From: Candidatus Gottesmanbacteria bacterium
GTDB lineage: Bacteria > Patescibacteriota > Microgenomatia > 2-02-FULL-39-11
Direction: 5' to 3'
NCBI GenBank assembly: GCA_016186795.1
Contig: JACPKY010000002.1
Location: 350,748 to 414,747 of the forward strand
DNA length: 64,000 bases
The notes under the pieces were generated by a model. It was not told where the DNA came from and made no database searches. It saw only the letters and a program-made list of their open reading frames with translations. The stretch's first letter is position 1, and every line of letters starts with the position of its first letter. Shown here one piece after another: positions 9,682 to 29,751 of the stretch. Made by a program: the position numbers and the translations under genes.

Positions 9682-9709
9682 ATTATATCGAAGATGTTAC
9701 TCTTGTCAA
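9682..9709 (-). promoter_or_regulatory. Near-consensus sigma70 promoter for the glyQS leader. On the minus strand it is TTGACA, a 16-nt spacer, then TATAAT. The -10 element overlaps the recO stop codon.
   Basis: Minus-strand TTGACA corresponds to plus 9704-9709 and TATAAT to plus 9682-9687. The predicted +1 is near 9675, giving a roughly 150-nt leader. Confidence 0.5.
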
Positions 9710-12175: not shown

Positions 12176-12181
12176 CGCTTT

Positions 12182-12841
12182 TTATACTGCTCCTTTTCCT
12201 GTAATCATAGCTGCCGGAGTCTTTAAAAGTATCCGTATATCATACCATAAAGATCGATGATCAACATAGGCTGCATCCATTGCGATCCTTTTATCAAAAT
12301 TTACCTCTGATCTGCCTGAAACTTGCCAATATCCCGTAATTCCTGGCTTGATCGACAATACCTTTTTTACTAAAATCTTCGTCTCTGGATATTTCCGTTG
12401 CTGATTGGATAACTCATCTGGATAGTAGGCACGAGGACCAACTAAACTCATATCTCCAGTAAAGACATTCAGAAGTTGTGGTATCTCATCAAGTGAGTGG
12501 CGACGAATAAAGCGGCCGAACAGGGTAACACGCGGATCTTCTTTTAACTTATAGCTATTTTTTTTGTATTGCTCATAAAGCGATCTCATTTTCGGATCCC
12601 TCCGAAGAAGTAAATGTGCGTTCTCGACCATAGAACGGAACTTGTACATTTTAAAGCGCTTTCCATTTTTGCCTACCCTTTCAGGAGTATCAGCAAAAAC
12701 TGGTCCTGGTGATTCAAGTTTTATAAAGATTGCCAAAAGAACACAAATTGGTGTAAATATTCCCAAAAGACATGCTGATCCAAATATGTCAATCAGCCGT
12801 TTTAATACCCGATCATAATTGGCACCTGTTAAAATTTTCAT
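12182..12841 (-). CDS. Polyprenyl-phosphate sugar-phosphate transferase. This is an initiating phosphoglycosyltransferase of the small monotopic Bac_transf / PglC-WbaP C-domain type.
   Basis: One N-terminal re-entrant helix, then the KxxSPGPxF....KFRSM...[22 protein letters not shown] signature of the bacterial sugar transferase family. Confidence 0.85.
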
Positions 12842-12842
12842 A

Positions 12843-13925
12843 TCAGACTAAATGATCATTTTCTGACCGAGCAAGATTTTCAACTAATTTTTTAATTTTC
12901 GGTACAGAATTTTTATGGCAAATTAAAACAACATCATGCGTATTGATGACAAGAAATCCGTTCAAATCGATCGTTACCACCATTTGATTTGTATAGTTAT
13001 AGATAAGACTATCCTGACAGTCAGTTACGAGAACTTTCCCTTGTATAACGTTTTGATCTGGTGTTGATTGTAAGGCCTCTTTTAACGCTTCCCATGCACC
13101 AACATCGCTCCATTCCAAGTTTTCTGAGATGACCATTGCATCATTGGTTGTGATTTTTTCCAAAATAGCATTATCGAAAGAAATCTTTGAAAGCTTCGGG
13201 TAGATTTCTTTTAAAACTCGTTTGAAATTTGGTTTTCCGTAAGCGCGGTGAATTTCCTCAAGAAGGGAAAACATCTCAGGCTGGAACCGTTTATATAGAC
13301 TCCATAAGAATGAGGGTGTCGTTACAAAATACCCTACATTCCAGGCGAAATTTCCACTTTTATAGAATTTGTCGGCTGTTTCCAAATCTGGACGGTAATG
13401 AAACTCATCAAATGCATAAAGTTCAAATCCATTACTTCGTCCTACCTTTTTTCCATATTTGATCCATCCCAAATTCTGACTCGCAAATCGAGGTTTTTGG
13501 CTGATAAAAATTATCTTGTTTGGTTTTTGAGAAACGATCTTGCTGCTTTCGGAAAGAATTTTCCGAAACAGAGCGTCTTTTCTCACTAGATGATCACTCC
13601 AAACAATAGCAATTGGCTCTCTTGGATGTATTTTTGTAAGGACTGCAGAAACAAGTCCTACCGCCGGACCGACATCTCTGCTTTCCGGCTCGCAAATAAT
13701 ATGAGACGAGGTAAGTTTTGGTAACTGTTCCGCAACAATTTTTTCATATTGGCTACTTGTGGCAATATAGATATCATCCCAAGCAAAATCAGGCAGTAAC
13801 CTTTCAACTGCAAGCTGCAACGTCGATTTTTCCCCGATGACTTTCTCAAATTGTTTGGGAGAGCGTCGTCTGGACAATGGCCACAAACGAGTTCCTACCC
13901 CACCTGCAAAAATAATTGCTTTCAT
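12843..13925 (-). CDS. manC: Mannose-1-phosphate guanylyltransferase (GDP-mannose pyrophosphorylase, no PMI domain)
   Basis: MKAIIFAGGVGTRLWPLSRRRSPKQF... nucleotidyltransferase N-terminus typical of ManC/CpsB. 360 aa. Confidence 0.8.
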   Translation of the reverse strand: MKAIIFAGGVGTRLWPLSRRRSPKQFEKVIGEKSTLQLAVERLLPDFAWDDIYIATSSQYEKIVAEQLPKLTSSHIICEPESRDVGPAVGLVSAVLTKIHPREPIAIVWSDHLVRKDALFRKILSESSKIVSQKPNKIIFISQKPRFASQNLGWIKYGKKVGRSNGFELYAFDEFHYRPDLETADKFYKSGNFAWNVGYFVTTPSFLWSLYKRFQPEMFSLLEEIHRAYGKPNFKRVLKEIYPKLSKISFDNAILEKITTNDAMVISENLEWSDVGAWEALKEALQSTPDQNVIQGKVLVTDCQDSLIYNYTNQMVVTIDLNGFLVINTHDVVLICHKNSVPKIKKLVENLARSENDHLV

Positions 13926-15040
13926 ATTATAGCTTTTGAATCTCTGTAGTATTTTCCAATGAGTTCCCGAATGTTCTTCTGAAAATGTCGTTTGGAAAAC
14001 CGAGAGGCATGAGTATAACAGTCTTCAGATAAATACTCCTTTGAGTTGAAGCGTAGAACCTTCTCGGAAAGACACTCCATAGATTCCTCTTCGTACAATT
14101 CACCAGTTTTCCCCACTTGTATAGTTTCTGCCACTCCCCCTTTCTTATATGCAATCACGGGTCTTCCACACGCTTGAGCTTCAACTGCAGTAATACCGAA
14201 ATCTTCTTCTCCCGGATAGATCAAAGCTTGACAATTTTGATAATACCAACAGAGTTTTGCATCTGTCAAATCACTACCAATAAATTCAATCGTTGGGCCG
14301 GCGAGTTTTCTTAACCGCTTACTATCAATGCCAGTTCCAATAATCTTGAGTGGGAATCCAAGGTTATTGAATACCTCAATAGCATAATCAATTCGCTTAT
14401 AAGGAACAAGCCGGGACACAATGAGAAAATAACGACCTGATGATAAGGTGTGATCGGGAGTAAACGTTTTCGTATCAACTGGAGGATAGATTACTTCTGC
14501 GTGTTGTTGGTAGTATACATCAATTCTTTCTGCTACAGCTTTCGAGATAGCAATGTACTTATCAGGCCTCTTCGAAGAGATATAATCCCAGTTCCGAAGT
14601 AGTGGAGCAGCAGACCTAATAAGAAATCGTGCCAAACCATTTGCCCAACCTAATCCGGGTTCCCGGATGTACTCGTCATACCCACTCCACAGATATCTGG
14701 TAGGAGTTAAGCAGTAACACACATGAAGAGTTCCTGGCTTTGTGAGAATTCCCTTTGCCTCGGCAGAGGTAATGGTTAGAACAAGATCAAAATCATCAAA
14801 CGTCATTGATTCGTAAAAAAAGGGGAGAAGTGGGGGAAGAATTTCATGGGGAACGACATTTAGAGGCCACCTACTTAACACCGAAGTTTTGACATGAAAG
14901 ACGTCTGCATAAGGTGCCGTCTTTGGATTATAGACCGGAGTAAAAAGTGGAGCTTCCGGCCAAATCTCATGAAGAGCAAGAAGTACTCGCTCTGCACCTC
15001 CAAATTTGTTGACTCTATCATAGACAAAGGCTATCTTCAT
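13922..15040 (-). CDS. Glycosyltransferase family 4 (GT-B, retaining)
   Basis: C-terminal EEDFGITAVEAQACGRPVIA (the E-x7-E motif region) and a GT4-like N-terminus. Confidence 0.8.
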   Translation of the reverse strand: MKIAFVYDRVNKFGGAERVLLALHEIWPEAPLFTPVYNPKTAPYADVFHVKTSVLSRWPLNVVPHEILPPLLPFFYESMTFDDFDLVLTITSAEAKGILTKPGTLHVCYCLTPTRYLWSGYDEYIREPGLGWANGLARFLIRSAAPLLRNWDYISSKRPDKYIAISKAVAERIDVYYQQHAEVIYPPVDTKTFTPDHTLSSGRYFLIVSRLVPYKRIDYAIEVFNNLGFPLKIIGTGIDSKRLRKLAGPTIEFIGSDLTDAKLCWYYQNCQALIYPGEEDFGITAVEAQACGRPVIAYKKGGVAETIQVGKTGELYEEESMECLSEKVLRFNSKEYLSEDCYTHASRFSKRHFQKNIRELIGKYYRDSKAII

Positions 15041-15043
15041 GTA

Positions 15044-16162
15044 CTACTGAGTAGTATACATTGTTTCATATAAGGAACGTGTTATCTTGGCTGTTTTTTC
15101 CCAATCATAGAACGGAAGATTTTTCTTTGCCCGTGAGACAAGTTGCTTGTATTTTGCTGGCGACATTTTCAAGATCTCTACCATTTTTCCAGCTATATCG
15201 GTAGAACTATACGGATTAAACATCGGAAGTTTTTCCCCCCAGATTTCCCGAAAGACTGGTATGTCAGAAATAACTGGTAGTATATTACAGTAAAGAGCTT
15301 CGAGATTTGGAAGACCAAACCCCTCCATAAGAGATGGAAATACGAGGAAAGAACAAAATGAATAGAGGTTAAAAAGATCGTGATCATTGGCGTTTCCGAA
15401 AAAAATAACCGCGTCTCCCAAACCTAATGACTTCGCATACCGTTCTAGTCTTGGATAAAAATAGAAATCAGAGCCCGCACAAACGAGTTTAATCAGAGAA
15501 TGTTTTCGAACGATTTTCAGTGCTTGCAAAAGACGCTCCAGATTTTTGTGGGGATATGCATTTCCCACGTATAAAATGTACTTATTGGGAAAAAGCCGCA
15601 CCGGAGTTTCTGTATCAACGGTTTTTTGAAAATGTGTATCAAGGGCGTCGTACGTTACGAACAGTTTTTCCGAAGGTACGTGATAATGATCATATACCTC
15701 TGCTTTGGTAGTATTTGATATTACTGTTATTGCGGATGCTCTCCTAACTGCTAGTTTTGTAGCAAAGGAATAGCCCAGACGCTTTATTCGGTAGAGAGGT
15801 TTTGGTAGAGTACTTGCTCGACCGGTATCAAAGTGATCCAAAATAAGATCGTGAATGGTAAGTAAGTATTTCTTGGGGTAACTAATTGGAACATTAAAAT
15901 AGGGGAAATGGACAACATCGAGATGATCTCTTAAAAGCACGTATGGTACAACAATCTGCTCGGTAATGGTATGCCAGGAAATATCGAGTAATTTCTTGTG
16001 CCAGTGACGACTTACTGGTTGGAATAAATCCCAATCTTTTTTCCGGAAATACACAATGTATTCATCTGATACGTCAAGCTTTTGAAGCGCCCGAAGAATG
16101 TTTTTGAGATATCTTCCTACACCTGTCTGAGTATATAATCTTGCATCGATTCCAATTCTCAT
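15044..16162 (-). CDS. Glycosyltransferase family 4
   Basis: MEGFGLPNLEALYCNILPVIS motif region. GT-B architecture. Confidence 0.8.
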   Translation of the reverse strand: MRIGIDARLYTQTGVGRYLKNILRALQKLDVSDEYIVYFRKKDWDLFQPVSRHWHKKLLDISWHTITEQIVVPYVLLRDHLDVVHFPYFNVPISYPKKYLLTIHDLILDHFDTGRASTLPKPLYRIKRLGYSFATKLAVRRASAITVISNTTKAEVYDHYHVPSEKLFVTYDALDTHFQKTVDTETPVRLFPNKYILYVGNAYPHKNLERLLQALKIVRKHSLIKLVCAGSDFYFYPRLERYAKSLGLGDAVIFFGNANDHDLFNLYSFCSFLVFPSLMEGFGLPNLEALYCNILPVISDIPVFREIWGEKLPMFNPYSSTDIAGKMVEILKMSPAKYKQLVSRAKKNLPFYDWEKTAKITRSLYETMYTTQ

Positions 16163-16165
16163 GGG

Positions 16166-17137
16166 TTACCTATATTGAAGAAGGGCGAAATACTTTTTAA
16201 TTGAAATAACAGCAAAAATACAGTATGTTACAACTTCCGGATATTTTGTCCTATAGTGCTTCTTGTAGAATATTTTCATAACATCAAAACGAGCCTCTGT
16301 TGCCTGTTTTTGAATAGATACATCTGCCTTAGAAAGAAATCGTGAATGGGTTTTGATCCCACTTGACGCACCTTTTAGATGAATAATCTCGCATGATGGT
16401 TGATAAAGGATCTTCCACCCTTTCTCCTTCAATGTATAACAAAGATCAATATCCTCACCATACCAGAAATAATCCTCATCGAGCCATCCGACTTCATCAC
16501 CTGCCTTTTTACGTACGAGCATAAAGGCTCCACAACAGCTATCGACCTCGTGAAGAATATCCATATTTTGATATCCTAAGTGATACCCGTTAAACAATAA
16601 ACTTTTCGGAAAACACCTTCCCAACCCTACAAAGTGACAGAATGCATTCCAAGCCGTTGGAAAACCTCGGTGACTTGCATCGTCAATTTCCCCCGACAAT
16701 AACTTCACCTTGCACGTCACAATACCTGCGTCGGGATGTGACTGTAATGTGTCTAATGCACATGCAAGAGATTCTTTGGAGACTATGGTATCGGGATTGA
16801 GAAGGAGAATATACGAACCTTTCGCACGTCTTATTCCTCGATTATTCGCTTTTGAAAAACCTTCGTTTGAAGAGTTTGCGAATACCTTCACCCAGGCATA
16901 TTTTTTCTTTATTAATATGGCTTCTTTCCCGTAAGATGCATTGTCAACAACGATTACTTCGTAATCATTCTTTGTTAATGAGGACTTTGCAATTGAATTT
17001 AAACAATTTTCAAGGAGATGAAATGAATTATAGTTCACAATAACAATAGAGATCTTCAAATTTTTCTTCATACTTGAAACCAAAAATTTACATATGATGA
17101 GCTGCTTCTTTATAGATCCGATCAAGTTTGTTCGCAA
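16166..17137 (-). CDS. Glycosyltransferase family 2 (GT-A). The probable true start is near 17071 (MKKNLKISIVIV).
   Basis: ISIVIVNYNS...VIVVDNAS (DxD-type GT2 N-terminal signature). Confidence 0.8.
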   Translation of the reverse strand: MRTNLIGSIKKQLIICKFLVSSMKKNLKISIVIVNYNSFHLLENCLNSIAKSSLTKNDYEVIVVDNASYGKEAILIKKKYAWVKVFANSSNEGFSKANNRGIRRAKGSYILLLNPDTIVSKESLACALDTLQSHPDAGIVTCKVKLLSGEIDDASHRGFPTAWNAFCHFVGLGRCFPKSLLFNGYHLGYQNMDILHEVDSCCGAFMLVRKKAGDEVGWLDEDYFWYGEDIDLCYTLKEKGWKILYQPSCEIIHLKGASSGIKTHSRFLSKADVSIQKQATEARFDVMKIFYKKHYRTKYPEVVTYCIFAVISIKKYFALLQYR

Positions 17138-18278
17138 TCATTTCCCAGTTGAATTGTCTTTCAACAAGCTCACGACCATTTTTTGCAAGTTTCCTATATA
17201 ATGAAGGGTTTGTAAGAACCGTAACAGTTTCACTCGCTAGTACTTTCACATTGTCAGAAATTATGGCGTGTTTATTGTGAACTGCACCTAGCCCTTCAAT
17301 ACCAGTGGTGGTTGTCACAACAGGAAGTCCAGTTGCCATCGCCTCGAGAATCTTATATCGTGTTCCCCCGGGGCCATAGATTGGTGCAAGAAGTACATCA
17401 GACTTTATATAGGCCTTGCGAATGTCTTCCATATCTTCAGTTATTCGTACGGAACTTGATTGGTAAGAGCGAATTGATTTCGGAGGATGTCTACCAATAA
17501 TCCATAAAGTCGCCTTGGGAATTCTTGAAACAATCTGGGGCCAAATGTCTTTCATAAGAATTGAAACAGCTTCACGATTTTGTAGCCATTTAAAATTCCC
17601 TACAAACAATATAGTTGGCCGTGTGGAGTCTATTTTATCTTTCCTCTTTTCAAAAAATGATACGTCAACCCCATTGGGCACAAGATCCACTGGGAGATTC
17701 GGAATGAGACTTTGCATGATTTTCTTATCAGGAAGGGACATTGTGACAACTCGTGTTGCTTTCTGCCAGAACCGTTTCTCCCAAAATTTTATTTTTACTA
17801 CATCCCACTCCATTAAAAGCTTCAGTAGAAGGAACTGAATGCTTTTGGTGTAATGTTTATATACCAAATATTCTATCGTCTGCTCTGCCAGAATCGTCGG
17901 AATTGTATTCGGAGGAATATTGGGCATCACATAAAATGTTTCAGCATGAATAATATCAAAGCGTTGCCGCTCCAACTCTTTTGCAATAGCTTTTTTTACT
18001 TCTTGTATGTAATACATACACACCACAAGAGGATAGTAAGTAACAGCAGACAGAAACAAACTCTTCGGTGCCCATGGGGGTCTTTTTTTGAATACCTTTA
18101 CATCAATACAATATTTTTTGAGACGTGGAATGTACTCTTTTTCCTGTTCATCTCGGATAAAAGAGTAGAGAGTTATTTCATGTTTTTTTGAAAGGTTCTT
18201 TAATAGATTGTATGTCCGAATTTGTCCACCAGACCAGATCGGATACGGCAGATACGGTGTCAACATGAGAATTTTCAT
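17088..18278 (-). CDS. Glycosyltransferase family 4
   Basis: MKILMLTPYLPYPIWSGGQIRTYNL... N-terminus and a C-terminal ILEAMATGLPVVTT motif. Confidence 0.8.
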   Translation of the reverse strand: MKILMLTPYLPYPIWSGGQIRTYNLLKNLSKKHEITLYSFIRDEQEKEYIPRLKKYCIDVKVFKKRPPWAPKSLFLSAVTYYPLVVCMYYIQEVKKAIAKELERQRFDIIHAETFYVMPNIPPNTIPTILAEQTIEYLVYKHYTKSIQFLLLKLLMEWDVVKIKFWEKRFWQKATRVVTMSLPDKKIMQSLIPNLPVDLVPNGVDVSFFEKRKDKIDSTRPTILFVGNFKWLQNREAVSILMKDIWPQIVSRIPKATLWIIGRHPPKSIRSYQSSSVRITEDMEDIRKAYIKSDVLLAPIYGPGGTRYKILEAMATGLPVVTTTTGIEGLGAVHNKHAIISDNVKVLASETVTVLTNPSLYRKLAKNGRELVERQFNWEMIANKLDRIYKEAAHHM

Positions 18279-18286
18279 GGCTATGC

Positions 18287-21200
18287 TTATTGTGGTAATT
18301 TATTATCCGAAACAAGTTGGATAAGAACATACGTAGGGGTGAAATCGATGATCTTGTAATGCCGAAGCGTTAGATCGGGATTGGTTGCGTCGTTTATTAG
18401 TTCTTTCGTCAAATCGTCAAAGGCAACACTGACGTAATAATCTGCACCTTTCCCGATAAGCTCGTCAATTGAACCTTGAACAATCGGCCATCCAGCTCTT
18501 CGTGTTTGATATAAAAAGGCTGTATCTCCACCGTATGGTGCAATTACTAGTGCTTTGGTGGAGGTCTTTCGCTCCACGATACTCCCTGCTTCAACAATTT
18601 CAGGATGATTGATATTGTAGTAATCGCGTACGTGATACCAACCGAACATGAATGAAAAGACCAAAATAGCAAGAAGAATAACTATTCGTAAGACTCGTGA
18701 TATAAGTTTTGTTGGTATTTCAAAAAGAAAGACTATGCCTTTGGCAGCAAAAATAGAGATTATAGGTATTGTCAGTACTTGGTAATAATCATGCCGTACA
18801 TTTCCTGTTGCAAAAACAATAAGATACAAAAGAGTCCCAATTCCAAACCAATAGAGAAACCATCCTTCTTTTTTGGGCCGTGCCAATATACCGAAAAGAA
18901 GAAGCGGCAATCCCCAGTACCCGGCAATGAGTCGGACTAATCGGTCTGCAAAAATCCAATAAAAGAAAGCCCCCTTAAACCGAATTCCATCCCCATTCAA
19001 AAGCCACATACTTGCAGGAATCCCCTCGGGGAAATGGCTTATCCAATAGCGCCAGAAAAGAAAAGGCACACTAATAATTACAAAATACAACATAAGAATA
19101 AGAATTGATTTTTTCGTATATCCATAGGCTTTAAACCAAATGTATACAAGGGGCAAAAATAAAAAGAGGGCGTATGGTTTTACGAGGAGCGCTGAGGCGC
19201 AAAAGAGAACGCTTACAATAAATAGTAATCCTGCTTTGAGTATTACTCTATTTTCAAAAGACAGTAATGTTTTGAATGTCGATACCAACCGATCAAAGAA
19301 ATAGATACTTCCAAGTGTTGTAAATACAAGAAACGGCTCTGGAAGAATGACTCTACTGAAATAAATATTATAGGGAAGGAATCCGAAAATTATAACGGAA
19401 AGGAACGCCTCGACCCTTCCTACGTATTTTCGTATGAGTGCAAAAAGAAATACCATGCTCCCTAAAGAAGCAAAAATCGAAGTCAACCTTCCTGAAACCT
19501 CAATATTGTACCCAACGAAAATCTTATCAATAATAACTGCTGCAAAGTTATACAGTGGAAACTCAACAAAACGGTATCCTTTGGGATTATCTTGTCCGGA
19601 AGCTACGTTGGAAAGATCATCATATGTTGGATACAAGAGATTCACGCCGTATTTTACGAAATTTCTGGTAACTGCCGATGTATCTGCTTGTCGCCATGAA
19701 TGCCAATCTGCCAGAGGAGTATTAATCTTATACAAACGAGCGTACAGTGAAAATGCTAAGACGACTCCTAAGAGAAAAGTATCACTTTTTATCATTGTAA
19801 GAGTCTTTGTTCGTATAGTATTTACAGTATCGGCAAGACCAGGAACTTGTGGCATTCCAACCTTTTCCTTATTCTGAGTTTGAAGTAAACGAATACCTGC
19901 AACTATTATGCCGACAATTGCCCAATACATGAATGCTACTTTCGAGGATTCATAGACGTCAATATAGATTGCGTTTACCAAAAGCCCAGCAACAATCCCT
20001 CCTAATCCCGCAGCTCCAGCAAAAAGAACTGGATCTTTCATGATTGGAATATTTCTCCAAAGATAGAACAAAATGATGGCTTGAATACTAAAAAATGCAA
20101 GGAATCCTAATATTCCTGTTTCACCAAGAGCACGGAGATAATCATTATCTGTCGATTCTGCTTCTGTAAATTGGTTGAATTGAGTTTTATTGAGTGTTGA
20201 GTATCCGCTTCCAAGCACCGGATTTTTTTTAAAGCCTGCAATTGCCATAGGCCAAAGGGCATCAAAACGAATTGCAGTTGAAAGATCATAGGTAAACGCA
20301 GTTTTTGAGTATGTCCGAGGAACAGCTGAAAGAGTACCTCCAGTTGGAATCATGAGAGGAAAATCCTCATTGACGTCACTTGGACGAAGAGGAGTTGGCG
20401 GTTGATCGCTTGAAGACGTTATCTGTGATAACTGATCTTTCGGATTATTCACGAGAAAGACGGCTCGATTGTCGGGAGGTTTACCAAATGGAGATAATAC
20501 CAAAAGCTTGATACCACCTAATCGTTCCTCAATTTTAAGAAGTTTCGTAAACCGTTCAGACAAATCTCCAAATGAAAGCATGACAAATATCGAAAGTAAT
20601 AGGACAAAAATCCACCGTTTCATTGACCAAAAAAAACCTTTGCGAAACATCCAAAAGAAAAACATCATGGTAATTCCCGCAATGTACGCAAGAAAGGAAG
20701 TCCTTGATGCAGTAAGGATAAGTGTCCAAAATACAGCTGCAATTGCACCGAGGAGGGCAATTTTTCCCAAAACATGTTTAATCGAGAAAAAAAGACTCCA
20801 GAAAAGAATCAGTACCATCATGGTAAATGCCGCCAGATCATAATGGCCTCCAAATGTGGATAGCACGCGGGCATGCTGAGTAAGGTAGAGCATCCATCCT
20901 TTTGCAAACTCTCGGTTCATCGTGGAGAATGCTGGCCAGTAGAGGTATTTTTGACCAAACCCATAGAAGGCAACAGCCAGAGAGGTGATAATCAAAATGC
21001 CAAGGTATATTTTTAGAGTCTTCGTATTTTTGATAGATGAGTAAAACACAAAAAAGAGAGAGAAATACTCAATACGTCGAAGAAAATGTAATATAACTTT
21101 CTGAATATGTAGAAGCTCAAATGGAACGGTCCGAATGATAAATACGGCCGAAATAAGTGAGAGTAGTCCTATGGTCAAATACAATGCGATGGGTTTAGCG

Positions 21201-21427
21201 AGCGGATTTCCTCGTAGTTCGACTTTTTTCCGCCATAGAGAAATTAACCAGAGGATAAGGGTAACTGAAACAAAAAAATCCTCAAGTCTGACACGCACAA
21301 TATATCCCGGCAACACGTCAAACAACGGAAGCTTCGGATACAATGGTATAAAAATGAGAAGAAATCCGGCTAGAAGAGAGAGATGGTTATTGTCTAGCCA
21401 TTTCAAAAGCTTTCGCATAAAGACCAC
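18287..21427 (-). CDS. 1046-aa polytopic membrane protein. It is a fusion of an O-antigen ligase/polymerase-like (Wzy_C) N-terminal half and a GT-C (PMT/ArnT-like, polyprenyl-phosphate-sugar dependent) C-terminal half.
   Basis: N-terminal half has more than 10 TM helices with a Wzy_C-like segment (STFGGHYDLAAF...). The C-terminal half begins with another TM bundle and a conserved acidic loop (YPTYDDLSNV...FVEFPLYNF) like GT39/GT83 enzymes, followed by a soluble C-terminal domain. Confidence 0.5.
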   Translation of the reverse strand: MVFMRKLLKWLDNNHLSLLAGFLLIFIPLYPKLPLFDVLPGYIVRVRLEDFFVSVTLILWLISLWRKKVELRGNPLAKPIALYLTIGLLSLISAVFIIRTVPFELLHIQKVILHFLRRIEYFSLFFVFYSSIKNTKTLKIYLGILIITSLAVAFYGFGQKYLYWPAFSTMNREFAKGWMLYLTQHARVLSTFGGHYDLAAFTMMVLILFWSLFFSIKHVLGKIALLGAIAAVFWTLILTASRTSFLAYIAGITMMFFFWMFRKGFFWSMKRWIFVLLLSIFVMLSFGDLSERFTKLLKIEERLGGIKLLVLSPFGKPPDNRAVFLVNNPKDQLSQITSSSDQPPTPLRPSDVNEDFPLMIPTGGTLSAVPRTYSKTAFTYDLSTAIRFDALWPMAIAGFKKNPVLGSGYSTLNKTQFNQFTEAESTDNDYLRALGETGILGFLAFFSIQAIILFYLWRNIPIMKDPVLFAGAAGLGGIVAGLLVNAIYIDVYESSKVAFMYWAIVGIIVAGIRLLQTQNKEKVGMPQVPGLADTVNTIRTKTLTMIKSDTFLLGVVLAFSLYARLYKINTPLADWHSWRQADTSAVTRNFVKYGVNLLYPTYDDLSNVASGQDNPKGYRFVEFPLYNFAAVIIDKIFVGYNIEVSGRLTSIFASLGSMVFLFALIRKYVGRVEAFLSVIIFGFLPYNIYFSRVILPEPFLVFTTLGSIYFFDRLVSTFKTLLSFENRVILKAGLLFIVSVLFCASALLVKPYALFLFLPLVYIWFKAYGYTKKSILILMLYFVIISVPFLFWRYWISHFPEGIPASMWLLNGDGIRFKGAFFYWIFADRLVRLIAGYWGLPLLLFGILARPKKEGWFLYWFGIGTLLYLIVFATGNVRHDYYQVLTIPIISIFAAKGIVFLFEIPTKLISRVLRIVILLAILVFSFMFGWYHVRDYYNINHPEIVEAGSIVERKTSTKALVIAPYGGDTAFLYQTRRAGWPIVQGSIDELIGKGADYYVSVAFDDLTKELINDATNPDLTLRHYKIIDFTPTYVLIQLVSDNKLPQ

Positions 21428-22328
21428 GACGCTTTGGGTATTTTCCGATTATACCAAATACAATAATGCGTAACAACGCTCCTAATGCTAGAATCATCCG
21501 AAGAATTATACGTCTTCCAAAAGAGTAGTGCTTTTTATATAGTGATAGAAGACCTTGAAATTCCTCTACAATTCCGCTCTCTCCCTTTTCTTTTGATGAA
21601 CCGCCTTTGTAGTGATAGAGAGGACTAGAAGAAGTGAAAAGCACTCTATACCCGGCTTTCCGTATGCGGTAACACCACTCAACTTCCTCTCCGTACATAA
21701 AGAAACGTTCATCCAAAGGTCCAACTGCATCAATCACGTCTCTTCGGATGCAAAAACATGCACCGCTCACCCAATCGACCAACGTATCTTTCTGATACAA
21801 AGATGTATCGGTTATATGATACGGTCGTATCAGACGTTGGATCCATGGAATATCATCCAAAAATAACATCCAGAGAACTACGCGCAAAAGTGTGGGAGAA
21901 AATCCGGCAGACGGTTGGATTGAGCCGTCTGCATTAAGAAGTTTTCCCCCTGTTACTGCAAGATGTTTGAGGTGGAAAAAGGGGGAGATGATATTTTTAA
22001 GTGTTGTGGGAAATACTTTTGTATCACTATTTAATAGAAGAATAAACTGTCCAGATGCCTTTTTTATCCCTTGATTATTTGCTTTGGCAAACCCGACATT
22101 TCTCGTGTTTTTAATAACTTGAACAAAAGGAAATCTTGTCCGAACCATCTTTATACTTCCATCTTTTGATGCGTTGTCAACAACAATAATCTCAATCGGT
22201 ACCCAGTTTTTCTTTTCGTACTCTTCTTTAAGCGAGAAAAGACAATCAGATAGAAGATTCCTCGTATTGTAGTTTACGATTATGACACTCAACGTAAGGA
22301 TCCCGGAAACGTAAGACTTCTTCTTCAT
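21387..22328 (-). CDS. Glycosyltransferase family 2
   Basis: LSVIIVNYNTRNLL...IIVVDNASKDGS signature. Confidence 0.8.
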   Translation of the reverse strand: MKKKSYVSGILTLSVIIVNYNTRNLLSDCLFSLKEEYEKKNWVPIEIIVVDNASKDGSIKMVRTRFPFVQVIKNTRNVGFAKANNQGIKKASGQFILLLNSDTKVFPTTLKNIISPFFHLKHLAVTGGKLLNADGSIQPSAGFSPTLLRVVLWMLFLDDIPWIQRLIRPYHITDTSLYQKDTLVDWVSGACFCIRRDVIDAVGPLDERFFMYGEEVEWCYRIRKAGYRVLFTSSSPLYHYKGGSSKEKGESGIVEEFQGLLSLYKKHYSFGRRIILRMILALGALLRIIVFGIIGKYPKRRGLYAKAFEMARQ

Positions 22329-22351
22329 ACAAAGGGGCAGGATTTAGGCGA

Positions 22352-22981
22352 TTACTGAAAGAGTCTTGCTCGGCCTATTCGGTAGTTGGGTTTTGATAAT
22401 TTCCTCTCTCCAATTTTTTCGGCTGGAACACCAGCAACAATAGTAAAAGGATCTACATCTTTTGTTACAACAGCTCCAGCTGCAACGACAGCACCAATCC
22501 CAATATGAACTCCTGGAAGGATCGTAACTCTCGGACCAATAAATACATAGTTGGAAATATTGACTTCTCCATACTCAACAGCGAAATCTTGACTATGAAT
22601 ATCGTGTTGCGAGTTGTATATCAAAACTTGCGAAGAAATAGCAACGTGACTACCAATAATTAATCGCGCTCGACCATCGAGAAATGCGTGGTCTCCGACA
22701 ATTGTATCTTCTCCAATCGTTATTCCTCCTGGTTGATAAAAGTTAGCAAACATATGAATGGTTGAGCTTTTTCCAATTTTAATACCGACCAAACGATACA
22801 GAAGTCTCCTCACCCAATGAATGGGAATATGCCCAACAAATCGCAATATCATAAGCTCAAAATCAAGGAAAATATTAAACACTCGAGTGATAAACTTTCC
22901 CATGGCTTGATTTACCGTGAGCGGTTTCCCCATTCTATCTCGTATTACTACCATAGAGGGAAATTCTACTTTATATATCAA
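22352..22981 (-). CDS. Sugar O-/N-acetyltransferase of the left-handed beta-helix (hexapeptide repeat) family
   Basis: Tandem hexapeptide repeats (IGEDTIVGDHAFLDGRARLIIGSHVAISSQVLIYNSQHDI...IGPRVTILPGVHIGIGAVVAAGAVV). Confidence 0.75.
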   Translation of the reverse strand: MIYKVEFPSMVVIRDRMGKPLTVNQAMGKFITRVFNIFLDFELMILRFVGHIPIHWVRRLLYRLVGIKIGKSSTIHMFANFYQPGGITIGEDTIVGDHAFLDGRARLIIGSHVAISSQVLIYNSQHDIHSQDFAVEYGEVNISNYVFIGPRVTILPGVHIGIGAVVAAGAVVTKDVDPFTIVAGVPAEKIGERKLSKPNYRIGRARLFQ

Positions 22982-22987
22982 AATATA

Positions 22988-24118
22988 TCAAATATGTACA
23001 TTTTCTAGGACTTTTAGCGTTTGCTTCGCACATTGACCCCAATCGAAGCGTTTCACCTCCTCTAACCCTCGTCTTATCATTATATCTCGGAAGTTTCTCT
23101 CTGCCATAACTTTTGAGAGTCCCTCGGCAATACTTTCGGATTGTAAGGGATCTACCAAAACCCCAGCGTTTCCGACAATTTCGGGAAGAGATGTCGTTTT
23201 ACTTACAACAACAGGGCATCCACAAGCCATAGCTTCAATAGCGGGTATACCAAATCCTTCGTAGAGACTAGGTAAGACAAAACACTGGGCACCACGGTAT
23301 AATACCGAAAGAATTGAGTTGGAAACGTAGTTGAGCCAAATGATCCTGTTTTTTAGAGGTGATCTTCCTATTTTTTCAAAAATTGGCTCGGTAAGCCAAC
23401 CTTTTTTTCCTACAAGAACAAGTGATATATCATGTTCTTTTTGAATTGTTTCAAACGCATCAAGAAGTTTTGTGATGTTTTTTCTTGGCTGTATCGTCCC
23501 GACAAAGAGGATATATCGGCCACGAATTCCAAGACGTTTTATAAGATCTTGGTCTTTTGTTTTGAGTCTATCTTTGCGGAAACTTTTTTTATCATACCCT
23601 GGGTAGGTAACAACAACTCGATCGGGAGAAACTTTATACGCATCAATGATAGAATTTCGTGAGAAGTGACTAATCGTAAGAATAGAAACAGCTTTTTTCA
23701 CAGAATATGCTGTCCACTCTTTTAATTGATATAGATCTTTTTTTCGGAAAAGTTCTGGAAAGAAGAGAAATGATACGTCCATAATAGACATAACGTGAGG
23801 AAGTGGGGAGAATCGAGGTACATAATGAGAGGGACTAAAAAATACATCTATCTTATCTCTTGAAAGATATAGCTCCAGTGGTAAAGCTATTTGAGTCCAT
23901 AATTTTGATGGTCCAAAAACTTTATATCTCCAAAAATCGGAAATTTTCGGCAAATCGGGAGATGGAGCGTTCTTAAGATATACAATATAGCGATTGGTGG
24001 GCTTATTTATCCTTCTCCTTTCAAGATCATTCAGGTGAGAAAGAAGTTGATATGCATATTGTCCAATTCCAACACGCTCTTTCGTATTCGCCTCGTTTCC
24101 ATCGATACCGATTGTCAT
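22988..24118 (-). CDS. Glycosyltransferase family 4
   Basis: YEGFGIPAIEAMACGCPVVVS motif. GT-B architecture. Confidence 0.85.
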   Translation of the reverse strand: MTIGIDGNEANTKERVGIGQYAYQLLSHLNDLERRRINKPTNRYIVYLKNAPSPDLPKISDFWRYKVFGPSKLWTQIALPLELYLSRDKIDVFFSPSHYVPRFSPLPHVMSIMDVSFLFFPELFRKKDLYQLKEWTAYSVKKAVSILTISHFSRNSIIDAYKVSPDRVVVTYPGYDKKSFRKDRLKTKDQDLIKRLGIRGRYILFVGTIQPRKNITKLLDAFETIQKEHDISLVLVGKKGWLTEPIFEKIGRSPLKNRIIWLNYVSNSILSVLYRGAQCFVLPSLYEGFGIPAIEAMACGCPVVVSKTTSLPEIVGNAGVLVDPLQSESIAEGLSKVMAERNFRDIMIRRGLEEVKRFDWGQCAKQTLKVLENVHI

Positions 24119-25269
24119 ATCTGACGTTTTCCAATCATTTCGTATAAGTGAATAACTTTTCGTGCATGACTATTCCAGTTAAAACGGGCTACATATCCTG
24201 AAGTATCTTTAATAAGATTTGTCCGTAAATCACTATCTACGATTAACTGAACTAGTTTTTGAGAGATCTCAACAGAGTCTGTGGGGTCAATGATAAGTGC
24301 GTGGTCTTTTACCAACTCCTTGAGACTTCCTCGATTTGAAGCAATAACAGGACACCCACAGGCCATGGCCTCAAGAATCGGCAGTCCAAAACCCTCATAA
24401 AGGGAGGGATAGACAAATACCCGTGCGCCACTAAAGAGAGCCGGTAAATCTCTTTGTTCAACGAAACCAAGAGTACGGACGTATTTTGAAGAAGAAATTT
24501 TTTCTCCCCAGCCAGGATTTCCTACAATAACGAGCTCAAGAGGCTTTCGCATTGCCTTTATAAGTGGATGTCTCTCAAATTCCAGAAACGCGGCGATGAG
24601 TGTTTTGAGATTCTTTCGCGGTTCAACAATGCCGACACTCAAAACATAATCGTCAAAAAGCGAATATTTTTGCTTTACTCGTTCTATTTCCTGCTTTGAC
24701 TGCGGTTGAAAGTCATTCGATACTCCCGGATAGATAACATGCACAATGGTATCAGAAACTTTCAAGATACGGGTAATATCTTCTTTTGTACTATATGAAT
24801 CTGAAATAATACAGTCCACCTCTTTTTGCACCCATCCCAGTCTTTTTTTTTGCGTGTCAACAATATATTGACTTGAAGTCTCTGGGTATTTGAGCGGAAT
24901 AACATCATGTACTGTCGTTATTTTCACTGCTTTTGTTGGCGGTTGAATCCAGTCTGATGAGTGAAAGATGTCAATATCGGGAAGAAAAATATCAACCGGG
25001 AGTATGTGGAGAGAGTTCCATACAAAATTAATAACACTTGGCGGAAGGAAAATAAATTTTTTAGAAACTCCGTTATGAATCTTTTTCATCTCGGAATGAA
25101 ATTGTTCAAGTATATTCATCTGATGAAAAGCCACACCAAAGAGGATATACTCGTTTTTCTTATCAACAGATAGAAGCGATGAAATAAGGTTCCGCGTATA
25201 CGTAGCGACGCCACTTCCTTGATATACAATTTGTGAAATATCAATTGCGATTTTCATAGAAGAATTCAA
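24115..25269 (-). CDS. Glycosyltransferase family 4
   Basis: YEGFGLPILEAMACGCPVIAS motif. Paralogous to the upstream GT4. Confidence 0.85.
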   Translation of the reverse strand: MNSSMKIAIDISQIVYQGSGVATYTRNLISSLLSVDKKNEYILFGVAFHQMNILEQFHSEMKKIHNGVSKKFIFLPPSVINFVWNSLHILPVDIFLPDIDIFHSSDWIQPPTKAVKITTVHDVIPLKYPETSSQYIVDTQKKRLGWVQKEVDCIISDSYSTKEDITRILKVSDTIVHVIYPGVSNDFQPQSKQEIERVKQKYSLFDDYVLSVGIVEPRKNLKTLIAAFLEFERHPLIKAMRKPLELVIVGNPGWGEKISSSKYVRTLGFVEQRDLPALFSGARVFVYPSLYEGFGLPILEAMACGCPVIASNRGSLKELVKDHALIIDPTDSVEISQKLVQLIVDSDLRTNLIKDTSGYVARFNWNSHARKVIHLYEMIGKRQI

Positions 25270-26011
25270 GTTGAAAAATCTGTCTGTATGTGGGTCCCCT
25301 TGTGATCATAAGAAGAGGCAGGAAAAAAAGCAAAATTTTCCGAAAAAATATATCCACAAAAAAACTTCTTGTCATCCACCCCTGCATAAGAAAATAACGA
25401 ATGCGAAAATCCTCATTCCCAAAAATAGAGATTGTAAATGGAATATGTTTCTTTTTTGCATATCGTCTCAAACGGGCAACAAAATCAGATTGTTCCGGAA
25501 GACCATATTTTACCTGTTCTTCTAAAAAAAAGTACGATCTGCCAAATTTCTCCTGATACTTTTTATCAAGAAGTACATCTTGTTGGTAAGATCTCCTCCC
25601 ACAAGGTACTGCAAGAATGATTTTGTACTTTCCAACTCGAACTAACTCTTTAATCACCCGATCTCGAGAAGAGGGAAGGATATGCTCAAGAGCATCAATG
25701 CTAATTACAACATCAAACGCATTATCTGAAAAAGGGAGGTTTGTAGCATTTGCCACAACTTGTTGTAGTAATTTATGAAATGGTGGAGAAAAATGCGTAT
25801 CGACGCCTACCACCTTCCGCTTTAAGTATGGAGCAATACCTAGTCCTCCTGACCCAACCTCCAAAACTGAAACATTGTCTCCAAGAATTTTTATTTTTTC
25901 CACAATTGGAAGATACCGGATAGCAACTTCTGGATGCCAACGAGAGAAATGCCCGAAGTTGGCAAAAACGCCCGCAATATCAGATTTTTTCATACCGATA
26001 AATAAACCCAA
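25241..26011 (-). CDS. Class I SAM-dependent methyltransferase
   Basis: Motif I LEVGSGGLG and the post-I motif DVVISIDALEHI. Confidence 0.65.
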   Translation of the reverse strand: MGLFIGMKKSDIAGVFANFGHFSRWHPEVAIRYLPIVEKIKILGDNVSVLEVGSGGLGIAPYLKRKVVGVDTHFSPPFHKLLQQVVANATNLPFSDNAFDVVISIDALEHILPSSRDRVIKELVRVGKYKIILAVPCGRRSYQQDVLLDKKYQEKFGRSYFFLEEQVKYGLPEQSDFVARLRRYAKKKHIPFTISIFGNEDFRIRYFLMQGWMTRSFFVDIFFRKILLFFLPLLMITRGPTYRQIFQLEFFYENRN

Positions 26012-27377
26012 CTCCAGGAAAATCTCGAATCTCCTTCTCCTCGTATGAGTGAGTAGAAAGATATAATCGTATCATACCCTTCTGGTCCGTAAGTCCTGTA
26101 AGATACTGAAAAAAATACACAGTATTCTTTCCAGAAATTTTCTCCTCCAATATGAGAAGATCGTCGTCACTAACAATAAATGATGGAGCGATTCCAAAAG
26201 ATGGAGAATTACCTTTGTAGTACCAAAGATAAGGGGCAAATGGACTGGGAAATGCAAATAAGACTACGCTTTTTGGGGTTTCTGTTTTTTCAATAAATGA
26301 AATTGCTGCTCTCCAATTTTCTCTTTGAACATAGGAATTAGTATAGTATTGCCAAAGTCCGATGGCGCTCGTTGTAACGATAATTAAGATTCCCAAAATT
26401 AATAATCGGAAACGCAACTTTAGTATCCAGGTTGCAAGAATCAGATAAAAGAGTGGAAGTAAAAAGAGAAGTCGTTGTGGAGCAACAACTGGTATGAATG
26501 CGTTTGCTATTACGGCAGCAACAAATGGAGTAAAGAAAAGAGAAAGTAAGATTTTTCCACTCTTTTCTCTCCAAAACGTAAGACAACTTATGATAAAAAG
26601 CGCCATTTCAGGAATGAGAACAAGTGATGCGCTTATATTGTTTGAGACTGTTATCTTGCCAAGAATAAATTTCGCAAATGTTGAAGGAATTAACGAAACA
26701 TTTGCAACAGAAACAACACTCGTCCATCCATGGAATTGTCCTCCCAAACCCACTCTTAATTGTTGAGCAAAAAACGGAATCCACGCCCAAAAAATAATTG
26801 CAGCTATAGTTAATGCGATTATAATATTTTTGATATCTTTTCTTTGGAAAAAAAGAATATAGAAAAGATGTGATAAAAAGACAAAAAACGTAAAGTAGTT
26901 AGTTAAAATCGCAAAAATTCCCAAAATTGTGTACCAAAACCACCGGCTTTTTAATATTAAATATGTTGCAAAAAGAGAAAGAAAAACAAAAAGCATGTAA
27001 GGACGAGCTTCTTGTGAATACCATACATGATAGGAAGAAACGGTAAGAAAGAGGCTTGCTAAAACTCCTGTTCGTTTATTTGCAAGACGTGTACCGATCA
27101 GATAGGTCATCACAATTGAACCCAGTGAAAAAATTACACTCGGGAGTCGAATCCAGACTTCGGAAGACCCACCAAGGAGCCAAAAATGAAGAAAAAGATG
27201 GTAAAAGGGTGGATGAAAATCGGCTGCAATATCAAATTGCTGCCAAAATGGTCGTGATGATTCTATAACTTGGGCTGCCTCGTCAAGCCATAAGCTTTGA
27301 TTTAACGTAATGAGACGAAGAAATAAAGCTAAAAGTAGAATACTAAATAGAATTCTATTTTTCATGAAATAGTTCAT
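25980..27377 (-). CDS. GT-C glycosyltransferase, family 39/83-like (PMT/ArnT-type, polyprenyl-phosphate-sugar dependent)
   Basis: About 12 TM helices with the first-loop acidic motif LWLDEAAQV (DE motif) and a C-terminal soluble domain. Confidence 0.6.
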   Translation of the reverse strand: MNYFMKNRILFSILLLALFLRLITLNQSLWLDEAAQVIESSRPFWQQFDIAADFHPPFYHLFLHFWLLGGSSEVWIRLPSVIFSLGSIVMTYLIGTRLANKRTGVLASLFLTVSSYHVWYSQEARPYMLFVFLSLFATYLILKSRWFWYTILGIFAILTNYFTFFVFLSHLFYILFFQRKDIKNIIIALTIAAIIFWAWIPFFAQQLRVGLGGQFHGWTSVVSVANVSLIPSTFAKFILGKITVSNNISASLVLIPEMALFIISCLTFWREKSGKILLSLFFTPFVAAVIANAFIPVVAPQRLLFLLPLFYLILATWILKLRFRLLILGILIIVTTSAIGLWQYYTNSYVQRENWRAAISFIEKTETPKSVVLFAFPSPFAPYLWYYKGNSPSFGIAPSFIVSDDDLLILEEKISGKNTVYFFQYLTGLTDQKGMIRLYLSTHSYEEKEIRDFPGVGFIYRYEKI

Positions 27378-27380
27378 AGG

Positions 27381-28283
27381 TTATCTTTTATATTTCACTT
27401 CTCCAAATACCGAACCAACTATACTTTGTATTACAGCAATAGAATATATCAGTTGAAAGGGAATCTGATAGAAATGACGGAATTTGACCCCAAGTATAAC
27501 TCCATTGAAAACCTGAAAAAGCGGATTATACCTTATCAGATTGAAAATAATTCGGGGAAATGAACCCGTTATAAATTCGTTTTTTCCAATCCACCGTGCT
27601 TGAGCGTATACCTCCAAAATAGATGAAGGATTTTTATGGTAACAAACTGCAGTAGTTACAGAAGCTAAATATCCCAACTTACGAGATAATGTCCAATCAT
27701 CTGTAAATCCGATATCATCAAATCCACCAACTTTTCTAAACTCCATTGTTTTAATTGCACGAAATACTGGAGATTTATCCGGGTAGTCCTGGGGAATTCG
27801 TCTTTTTGATGATATTCCTTCGTTATAATTCCATGAGCGTGCCCATGGATTATTCCAATTTTCTACGTATTCAGCCTTGGTAAAGGTACCTCTACTTTTT
27901 TGCCCTCGGATTGGTTTTGTCAGCTCATCAACAAAATTTTGAGCAAATATCATATCACCATCAACAAATACGAGAATTTCTCCCGAAGCTCTTGATACGC
28001 CTAAGTTTCTAGCCTTTGCAGTTCCCTGGTGAGATGACTGGAGAAAAATGATTTTGGCAAGCATACCTTTCTCATCTAAATACTTTTGAATTATCTTTTG
28101 ACTATTATCACTTGAGCCATCATCCACAAGAATAATTTCTAACGGCTTATACGTTTGGCTTTCCAATGATGAAAGACAAAATTTTATGGATTTTTCTTCG
28201 TTATATACCGGAATTACAATAGAAATAAGGAGGTTAGATTTCATATTTACACTCTTGAAGTTCGTTATTTGTTTCTTTAACAT
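27381..28283 (-). CDS. Glycosyltransferase family 2. The probable start is near 28244 (MKSNLLISIVIP).
   Basis: ISIVIPVYNEEKSI...IILVDDGSSDNS signature. Confidence 0.8.
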   Translation of the reverse strand: MLKKQITNFKSVNMKSNLLISIVIPVYNEEKSIKFCLSSLESQTYKPLEIILVDDGSSDNSQKIIQKYLDEKGMLAKIIFLQSSHQGTAKARNLGVSRASGEILVFVDGDMIFAQNFVDELTKPIRGQKSRGTFTKAEYVENWNNPWARSWNYNEGISSKRRIPQDYPDKSPVFRAIKTMEFRKVGGFDDIGFTDDWTLSRKLGYLASVTTAVCYHKNPSSILEVYAQARWIGKNEFITGSFPRIIFNLIRYNPLFQVFNGVILGVKFRHFYQIPFQLIYSIAVIQSIVGSVFGEVKYKR

Positions 28284-29727: not shown

Positions 29728-29751
29728 GTATTTTTATACTACAATGATACC

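Follow-up and report, generated by a model that had tools for sequence, protein, structure and literature searches.

A WaaL-like module fused to an ArnT/PMT-like module in one membrane protein encoded by a conserved glycan operon of Microgenomates

The 64-kb stretch of Candidatus Gottesmanbacteria DNA analysed here over its full length (64,000 nucleotides, hereafter the window) carries a gene whose product is a genuine two-module integral-membrane glycosyltransferase. The N module of this fusion protein resembles O-antigen ligases of the WaaL type, and its C module resembles membrane glycosyltransferases of the ArnT/PMT type. The best explanation, which as a whole we consider rather probable, is that of a bimodular enzyme derived from two fused adjacent, translationally coupled genes and which would couple two lipid-donor steps outside the membrane. 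The coordinates of the gene, of its domains and of its neighbors are collected in Table 1.

The open reading frame (ORF) is uninterrupted from 18287 to 21427 on the minus strand and counts 1046 codons when read from a GTG at 21427. The preliminary description of this DNA had proposed a single polypeptide of 1046 aa on that basis, and the single polypeptide stands, albeit with another start. Indeed, the ATG located three codons downstream of the GTG is the better start since its product of 1043 aa is identical (100%, full length) to a Candidatus Gottesmanbacteria protein of NCBI (P0001), named 'O-antigen ligase family protein', and since the orthologues begin at the same Met with an N-terminus of the form MxKLLxWLD.

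The same description had assigned the N half to Wzy_C/WaaL-type proteins and the C half to PMT/ArnT-like GT-C enzymes, and the domain profile scan that it called for bears out the former assignment and, at the family level, the latter. The Pfam profile Wzy_C (PF04932) matches residues 226-443 (E 1.2e-17, 64.5 bits for a cut-off of 31.7), and it is matched in all 37 aligned full-length orthologues. The C half gave no Pfam match in the scan of the whole fusion protein; scanned separately, it scores 24.5 bits with PMT (PF02366), above the cut-off of 22.7, and 18.7 bits with PMT_2 (PF13231), under the cut-off of 26.1. At the family level, PMT_2 matches 31 of the 37 orthologues (best E 8.7e-17) and PMT matches 9, and it is at this level that the assignment of the C module to PMT_2/PMT can be regarded as firm. 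It had been envisaged that both halves might turn out to belong to a single repetitive transporter family; the profiles give Wzy_C and PMT/PMT_2 instead. No match to the fusion protein was returned by the NCBIfam scan, nor by a sequence search of the PDB at E<=10 with the whole protein and with the 37-sequence profile.

The AlphaFold2 model, built from the 37-sequence alignment (pLDDT 76, pTM 0.60), displays twelve helices at residues 2-515, a linker with one short helix at residues 516-545 and a second polytopic bundle from residue 546 on; a predicted alpha/beta domain is found where a soluble C-terminal domain had been expected. The structure comparison returned ALG12 (24.8), WaaL (7tpj_B, 24.5, with 349/403 residues aligned), AglB (24.1), Pmt4 (23.6), ArnT (22.8), STT3B (20.6), FtsW (14.1) and RodA (11-12), WaaL being the best fold match of the N module. 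With Foldseek, ArnT was retrieved at E 1e-5 with a target TM of 0.62 and WaaL with a target TM of 0.63, and full-length ArnT and ALG12 (TM 0.62-0.65) cover the C module as well as or better than oligosaccharyltransferases (OSTs). From the fold comparison of the model, with which Foldseek agrees, the N half is classified as GT-C_B (WaaL-like, CAZy clan GT-C1) and the C half as GT-C_A (ArnT/PMT/ALG-like).

The hydrophilic junction previously noticed at about residues 520-545 corresponds to the linker 516-545, which contains 5 Lys/Arg for 2 Asp/Glu and displays the lowest conservation of the protein (0.36, versus 0.56-0.94 elsewhere). The topology was deduced by applying the positive-inside rule and by comparison with WaaL and ArnT, whose topologies are known. 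Short Lys/Arg-rich loops alternate with conserved loops along the protein, and the N-terminus, the linker and every second loop are therefore placed in the cytoplasm, both ends of the N module being presumably cytoplasmic by the positive-inside rule. With a cytoplasmic linker, the highly conserved loops of both modules (156-191, 284-425, 563-638 and 796-817) are predicted to face the outside. The column identity reaches 0.94 in the loop 156-191, 0.77 in the first outside loop of the C module (EL1, 563-638) and 0.88 in the loop 796-817.

Relatives of the gene were sought by scanning one genome of each GTDB species for two patterns, which gave 555 matching stretches and hence fewer than 555 genomes, and the best 80 loci were analysed. 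Where named, these loci are from Microgenomates (Gottesman-, Curtiss-, Woese-, Beckwith-, Chisholm-, Roizman- and Pacebacteria). At 28 of them, confined to the closer relatives, the two modules are encoded by one ORF (1014-1117 aa, stop-to-stop), and at 38, which are all the other complete loci, by two adjacent genes; the carriers of such split pairs are Curtiss-, Woese-, Beckwith-, Chisholm- and Pacebacteria. Furthermore, a protein search identified more than 100 clusters of ~1040 aa (100% query coverage, 51-72% identity) from NCBI, JGI, ENA and Logan, each with a single ORF.

The split N gene (~520-640 aa) ends in a Lys-rich tail right after transmembrane helix 12 (TM12), and the split C gene (~470-530 aa) begins a few residues ahead of its TM1 and of the invariant 'P[LI]ADWHSW'. 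Both boundaries fall at the position of the linker 516-545, a stretch of ~30 residues that is common to the fused forms and missing from the split ones. The two split genes either overlap by 4 nt, share a longer out-of-frame overlap or lie in the same frame with one TAA or TAG between them. In the last situation, found at loci L024, L026, L027, L029, L031, L039, L040 and L041, a single base change would fuse the genes, so that the fusion could easily arise. Programmed read-through in these one-stop relatives was considered and set aside, their C genes having an M/V start of their own within a few codons and the overlaps of other relatives being out of frame.

An exhaustive search with the C half among 50%-identity representatives retrieved 202 sequences at E<=1e-30. 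Stand-alone proteins of ~480 aa and fragments make up nearly all of the best 150 of these 202, next to four proteins of fused size, of which two are full-length at ~1040 aa and two measure ~800 aa. In a neighbor-joining tree of the 28 fused and 38 concatenated split sequences, from which the linker was left out, the fused forms make up one clade nested among the split ones, a clean pattern though in a rough distance tree. Given this monophyly, it is likely that one fusion event took place at the base of a Gottesmanbacteria-type clade. Since relatives outside this clade keep two adjacent genes, the single ORF appears as a lineage-specific fusion of a conserved gene pair. The possibility that the C module is a recent duplicate of one of the two stand-alone PMT_2 genes of the window was also rejected, only marginal local similarity being found. 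The same two-module architecture may occur in other phyla.

The residues of the N module were compared with those of WaaL by two routes. E. coli WaaL (from NC_000913) was aligned to the N module with MAFFT, and its residues were related by phmmer to R191, R265 and H313 in the WaaL of C. metallidurans, the structure of which is solved. As an independent check, a hidden Markov model of the N module was aligned with HMMER to the C. metallidurans WaaL fragment. The two alignments are concordant on all three equivalences, i.e. those of R239, R384 and D424 (Table 1). R239 and R384 are invariant in the 66 split and fused sequences, and an Asp is found at the D424 position in 65 of these 66 (37 of the 38 split forms, with one gap, and 28 of the 28 fused ones). 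In WaaL, the two Arg bind undecaprenyl diphosphate (Und-PP) and the His, conserved in O-antigen ligases (O-Ligs), activates the acceptor, while SEDS proteins and inverting Wzy-type polymerases of the same clan carry Asp/Glu at the His position (PMC10920833). By its sequence, the N module is thus marked by the Arg-Arg-Asp pattern of polymerases/SEDS rather than by the O-ligase pattern, even though its fold is nearest to WaaL. As an Asp replaces the ligase His, the label 'polymerase' fits the N module at least as well as 'ligase'.

In the C module, the residues that are invariant across the 66 sequences are D571, H573, R576, D579, E619, R790, N808, R813, R826, N873, H876, D877 and Q880. The acidic motif that had been recognized in the first loop is represented by D571 and D579, which lie 9-17 residues past TM1 of the C module and plausibly occupy the site of the GT-C_A catalytic acid. 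The motif 'GYRFVE619FP' aligned weakly with 'GLRYFEKP' of ArnT (hhalign E 0.01, probability 4%, downstream region only). More generally, when the N and C sub-alignments were compared by hhalign with WaaL and ArnT of E. coli, the probabilities stayed under 5%, and these comparisons were rejected as proof. No WWDYG-type peptide-binding motif was seen in the protein. GT-C_A enzymes of families GT39/GT83 use lipid-P-monosaccharide donors (PMC10920833 Table 1), and characterized members of the families to which the C module belongs use polyprenyl-P-monosaccharides (PMC10920833 Table 1, PMC11127046).

The neighbors of the fusion gene are all on the same strand and tightly packed or overlapping. The operon order is, in its 5' part, GT2c, PMT_2, methyltransferase, GT4e, GT4d, acetyltransferase (a WcaF-like O-acetyltransferase), GT2b and the fusion gene, followed by GT4c (stp1-like), GT2a, GT4b, GT4a, ManC, a small phosphoglycosyl transferase (PGT), DUF4012 and RecO, where GT stands for glycosyltransferase. 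The ManC-like gene encodes a GDP-mannose-type nucleotidyltransferase, and RecO is often followed by a tRNA synthetase of class II (of the His type, judging from its Pfam domains). In a tblastn search of the operon proteins against the 80 loci, the same genes occur in the same order in genomes down to 36-40% identity, and an order of ~17-20 genes is kept in Gottesman-, Curtiss-, Woese-, Beckwith-, Chisholm- and Pacebacteria (loci L002-L079). Surface-polysaccharide gene clusters are usually hypervariable. The conservation of this gene order is thus unusual and suggests a conserved glycan, the operon product being possibly a 'common antigen'-like surface glycan of these lineages. Many of the operon-bearing records of metagenome-assembled genomes are titled 'uncultured Gammaproteobacteria', 'uncultured Pseudomonadales', 'Limisphaerales' or 'Omnitrophota' (loci L005, L009, L011-L014, L016, L019-L021, L026, L031, L032, L037, L054 and others). 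These titles are probably placeholder names or reflect mis-binned contigs, the operon being otherwise found only in Microgenomates-named records.

Table 1. Coordinates of the fusion gene, its domains and key residues, and of the neighboring genes in the window
Feature	Position	Strand	Remarks
Fusion gene, 1043 codons + stop	18287..21418	minus	preferred start ATG 21416-21418
N module, residues 1-515	19874..21418	minus	12 predicted TM helices, GT-C_B (WaaL/Wzy_C) fold
Outside loop 156-191 (YWPAFSTMNREFAKGW...)	20846..20953	minus	mean column identity 0.94, most conserved stretch of the protein
Wzy_C match, residues 226-443	20090..20743	minus	TM7-TM10 and long outside loop
R239	20702..20704	minus	equivalent to WaaL R215 (E. 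coli), R191 (C. metallidurans), which in WaaL binds an Und-PP phosphate
R384	20267..20269	minus	equivalent to WaaL R288 (E. coli), R265 (C. metallidurans), the second Und-PP-binding Arg of WaaL
D424	20147..20149	minus	position of the WaaL acceptor-activating His, H338 (E. coli), H313 (C. metallidurans)
Linker, residues 516-545	19784..19873	minus	Lys/Arg-rich, predicted cytoplasmic
C module, residues 546-1043	18290..19783	minus	GT-C_A (ArnT/PMT/ALG12-like) membrane glycosyltransferase, by fold comparison
First outside loop EL1, residues 563-638	19505..19732	minus	invariant D571, H573, R576, D579; motif 'GYRFVE619FP'
C-terminal alpha/beta globular domain, residues 934-1043	18290..18619	minus	predicted; invariant D965, W977-P978
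Conserved collinear operon, main part	9683..28283	minus	Pfam and NCBIfam
GT2b, upstream GT2 glycosyltransferase	21387..22328	minus	stop overlaps fusion start by 32 nt; syntenic in most relatives
DUF4012 protein, 644 aa	10241-12175		one N-terminal TM helix; strictly syntenic operon member
Small WbaP-type PGT (Bac_transf)	12182-12841		present, syntenic
Upstream operon part: Wzx flippase, GT2e, GT4f	35728..38841	minus	Wzx 37543-38841
240-aa GT2, PgfS/ArnC/AglJ class	31409..32131	minus	only candidate polyprenyl-P-sugar synthase in the window

In this genome only, the operon is split by a block of 7.5 kb (28234-35747), which has few or no matches in the 80 related loci and looks like an inserted accessory glycosylation module. 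It contains DUF2079 and, on the plus strand, DUF6798 and a methyltransferase, together with a GT2 of the DPM1/ArnC class, a split transketolase and an epimerase/dehydratase. As for the DUF4012 protein, DUF4012 is among the families enriched in the Candidate Phyla Radiation (CPR) and shared with Gram-positives, and it occurs in a capsular/exopolysaccharide (CPS/EPS) cluster of Bifidobacterium (PMC6744442); the protein of the operon could fill the place of a component that is missing here, for chain length, for attachment or as the acceptor.

Beyond the operon, a long variable glycan region extends from 38838 to 63840. It contains a DegT aminotransferase, a PMT_2 gene (39965-41566), DUF2142, GT2, GT10/GT11 fucosyltransferase-like genes, methyltransferases and a fused transketolase, as well as a CMP-sugar cytidylyltransferase, NeuB (nonulosonic acid synthase), a carbamoyltransferase and further GT-C-type proteins; large ORFs without Pfam match include 47948-49249 and 60269-61915. 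About 50 kb of the window is given over to glycans. On the opposite flank are cell-wall/division (dcw-type) genes encoding MraW, an FtsI-like penicillin-binding protein and a Mur ligase, and a 512-aa ORF (5468-7006) with a PilM_2-like N-terminal region and LytR_C lies between the dcw-type genes and the glycan operon.

The operon brings together a PGT, ~ten cytoplasmic GT4/GT2 enzymes, a nucleotidyltransferase, an O-acetyltransferase and Wzx. This toolkit would build a large Und-PP-linked oligosaccharide, which Wzx would flip across the membrane. The N module, as the only Wzy_C-type enzyme in the conserved part of the operon, should consume this Und-PP donor: it would bind it through R239 and R384 and transfer the glycan, with inversion, onto a hydroxyl activated by D424, the acceptor being either the next repeat unit, as for a polymerase, or the final acceptor, as for a ligase. 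The Asp pattern and the Wzx context favor the polymerase, and the WaaL-like fold, the very many GTs and the lack of a detected chain-length regulator favor an en-bloc ligase. The tethered GT-C_A module would move one sugar from a polyprenyl-monophosphate donor to the same glycan or to its acceptor, thereby completing the acceptor just before transfer, as in WadA, or decorating the product just after it, as in Gtr systems. The fusion, the conserved adjacency and the overlapping stop/start codons suggest a joint action of the two enzymes on one substrate; the gene fusion in particular speaks for their cooperation without proving it, and would set a 1:1 stoichiometry and the closeness of two outward-facing active sites. 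The earlier proposal that a glycan is attached and then extended or decorated outside the membrane is plausible.

Concerning the donor of the C module, GT2b and GT2c were each considered as a GtrB/ArnC-type synthase and discarded, the match to GtrB/ArnC/DPMS being weak and limited to the N-terminal GT-A core; by sequence they look like ordinary GT-A enzymes. No small membrane ORF is present in the tightly packed operon. The 240-aa GT2 listed in Table 1 scores 76 bits with PgfS and 54 bits with ArnC, both far under the cut-offs, and is a possible source of the GT-C donor.

Several points weigh against this explanation. Neither a GtrB/ArnC-type polyprenyl-P-sugar synthase nor a GtrA/SMR-type flippase was found in the conserved operon, and the only candidate synthase sits in the window-specific insertion. 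A Wzz/PCP chain-length regulator was found in none of the scanned ORFs of the window, which weakens the polymerase reading of the N module. AglB and STT3, which use lipid-PP-oligosaccharides, rank among the closest folds in the comparison of the C module; as GT-C_A includes OSTs with such donors, the C module could be an en-bloc transferase. The residue equivalences with WaaL come from low-scoring alignments, though the two agree. The pLDDT falls under 50 at residues 155-190, 284-352, 368-386 and 799-816, precisely in the conserved outside loops, so that, of what had been expected from a single-chain model, the two modules and the linker are recovered but the active-site geometry and the domain packing are not readable.

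Four other explanations have to be weighed against the coupling of two lipid-donor steps by a bimodular enzyme. That the ORF is an assembly or sequencing artefact, two genes being merged at the junction by a missed stop or a frameshift, is scarcely credible and effectively refuted. Evolution does give some ground for suspecting a frameshifted pair, as the modules are encoded in relatives by neighboring genes: Curtiss-, Woese-, Beckwith-, Chisholm- and Pacebacteria truly have two ORFs, some of them only one in-frame TAA or TAG apart. However, one ORF is present in 28 independently assembled genomes and in the more than 100 single-ORF clusters of ~1040 aa from four collections, and the fused forms make up one clade and share the linker that split forms lack; the two-module protein favored in the preliminary description is thus real. 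It is very improbable that the protein is a canonical WaaL using lipid A-core as the acceptor to which O-antigen is ligated, with an accessory ArnT-like domain modifying lipid A. Its NCBI name, WaaL as the best fold match of the N module and ArnT, which modifies lipid A, as one of the top matches of the C module go in this direction, but the acceptor-activating His is replaced by an Asp in every family member examined and no lipid A/core genes (lpx, waa, lpt) are present among the scanned ORFs of the window. CPR/Microgenomates bacteria are regarded as devoid of lipopolysaccharide (LPS) and of an outer membrane. In addition, sortase, described as a Gram-positive-associated function, is near-ubiquitous in Microgenomates (PMC6744442).

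Protein O-glycosylation, in which the N module would be an O-oligosaccharyltransferase (O-OTase) of the PglL/WsaB type, transferring the Und-PP-oligosaccharide en bloc to surface proteins (S-layer, pilin or other), and the C module would O-glycosylate or prime these proteins with polyprenyl-P-sugar, is unlikely, although a modest chance has to be granted to it. PglL-type O-OTases fall within Wzy_C and PMT/PMT_2 is the protein O-mannosyltransferase family, as the Pfam names indicate, and Pmt4 and AglB/STT3 are among the top fold matches. The ~ten cytoplasmic GTs suggest that the oligosaccharide is large and defined, as is more usual in en-bloc transfer than for a repeat unit, and the undetected chain-length regulator and a glycan pathway that is conserved rather than hypervariable are in keeping with it. 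Conversely, the conserved O-ligase His is an Asp, the WWDYG-type motif was not seen and, the DUF4012 protein excepted, the operon is without a candidate acceptor protein; in silico, moreover, a protein acceptor is indistinguishable from a glycan or lipid acceptor. An exchange of roles, the N module polymerizing Und-PP units and the GT-C module acting as the ligase of the finished chain to wall polysaccharide, peptidoglycan or lipid, in the manner of GT-C-fold enzymes such as lactococcal WpsJ or OSTs, is in our opinion improbable. It would account for the Arg-Arg-Asp of inverting polymerases in the N module (PMC10920833), for the presence of AglB, STT3 and PglB, all users of lipid-PP-oligosaccharide donors, among the folds closest to the C module, and for an operon in which neither a polyprenyl-P-monosaccharide synthase was found nor an LCP-type ligase seen. 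Nevertheless, by its profile matches the C module falls within PMT_2/PMT (GT39/GT83-like), the characterized families of which use lipid-P-monosaccharides (PMC10920833 Table 1), ArnT and ALG12 cover it at least as well as the OSTs do, and the WWDYG motif is absent from the protein.

No description of a Wzy_C-type/GT-C fusion or of O-antigen-ligase-like genes in Microgenomates/CPR was found in the searchable literature, and PMC6744442 mentions only unnamed membrane families enriched in Microgenomates, and DUF4012. Both superfamilies to which the modules belong are known and the protein had already been labelled by automated annotation; what appears new, as far as the searchable literature goes, is that a GT-C_B and a GT-C_A module are paired and, in one lineage, fused, that a WaaL-like fold carries a polymerase-type catalytic pattern, and that the operon is conserved across these lineages. 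Genes that are always adjacent and are fused in one lineage constitute Rosetta-stone evidence for a physical cooperation between a lipid-PP-glycan polymerase/ligase and a lipid-P-sugar GT-C enzyme. The 'O-antigen ligase' label is misleading for an enzyme without the ligase His in a lineage regarded as devoid of LPS, and the operon hints at a conserved glycan on the surface of a large lineage that is uncultivated and hardly explored in its envelope chemistry. A more far-reaching proposal, which we put forward only tentatively and consider doubtful, is that the Wzy_C-like and ArnT/PMT-like enzymes form an obligate complex, covalently fused in Gottesmanbacteria, as the extracytoplasmic core of an undescribed envelope glycoconjugate pathway kept throughout Microgenomates. 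Two lipid-linked donors, Und-PP-oligosaccharide and polyprenyl-P-sugar, would be consumed at one composite site, one module making the acceptor or primer for the other. If true, a GT-C_B/GT-C_A pair would for the first time be shown to work as a unit, and the complex would be a hallmark of the cell surface in this CPR lineage. Being a single chain, the fused protein is a handy object for cryo-EM or heterologous expression in studies of the coordination between the two enzyme classes.

Among known systems, WaaL (CAZy GT121; PDB 7TPG/7TPJ) shares with the N module a long outside loop ahead of the last three helices, the two Arg that bind Und-PP in WaaL (here R239 and R384) and a Wzy_C score above gathering. 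Unlike WaaL, the N module has the invariant D424 in place of the acceptor-activating His, an insertion of ~70 residues in the large loop and the additional, extremely conserved loop 156-191; furthermore, it is fused or adjacent to a GT-C_A enzyme and belongs to CPR hosts, a group regarded as lacking LPS. Inverting Wzy-type polymerases and SEDS proteins (clan GT-C1: GT119, GT125-129) are of the same clan and fold class and likewise carry one or two Arg together with Asp/Glu at the position of the WaaL His (PMC10920833). As in Wzx/Wzy pathways, a Wzx flippase and a PGT are present in the operon of the fusion gene; unlike in these systems, a chain-length regulator was not detected in the window, and the operon is not hypervariable but kept throughout the Microgenomates lineages sampled.

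The C module resembles ArnT/PMT/PMT_2 enzymes (CAZy GT83, GT39) by the PMT_2 matches in 31 of 37 family members, by a TM1 followed by an outside loop with invariant Asp, by a 'RFVEFP' stretch reminiscent of 'RYFEKP' in ArnT and by its extracytoplasmic C-terminal domain. It differs from them by its strong divergence, with no sequence match in the PDB and a PMT_2 score of its own under the cut-off, by a Phe in place of the Lys of the ArnT 'FEKP', and by the lack of an adjacent GtrB/ArnC-type synthase or small flippase found by the fusion gene. In the three-component Gtr systems (GtrA/GtrB/Gtr*, GT136; PMC11127046), a GT-C enzyme modifies outside the membrane an Und-PP-linked glycan built by Wzx/Wzy, a logic that is possible for the C module; there, however, the GT-C gene is accessory or serotype-converting, whereas here it is the conserved core partner of a Wzy_C-type enzyme, and the synthase and flippase components are not adjacent to it. 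WadA of Brucella/Mesorhizobium, the only bimodular ligase precedent found, is a GT121 + GT25 O-antigen ligase whose second module adds the last core sugar, i.e. the acceptor of the ligation (PMC10920833, PMC9938171). There is no sequence relationship between the two fusions, and the partner in WadA is a soluble cytoplasmic-type GT-A/GT25 enzyme using nucleotide sugars, whereas that of the fusion protein is a polytopic GT-C, not a GT25, with an expected lipid-linked donor at the outer face. Yet both hold, within one chain, a lipid-PP-glycan transferase of the Wzy_C type and a second glycosyltransferase, which in WadA acts on the same glycoconjugate, and by this analogy WadA appears as the closest precedent in logic.

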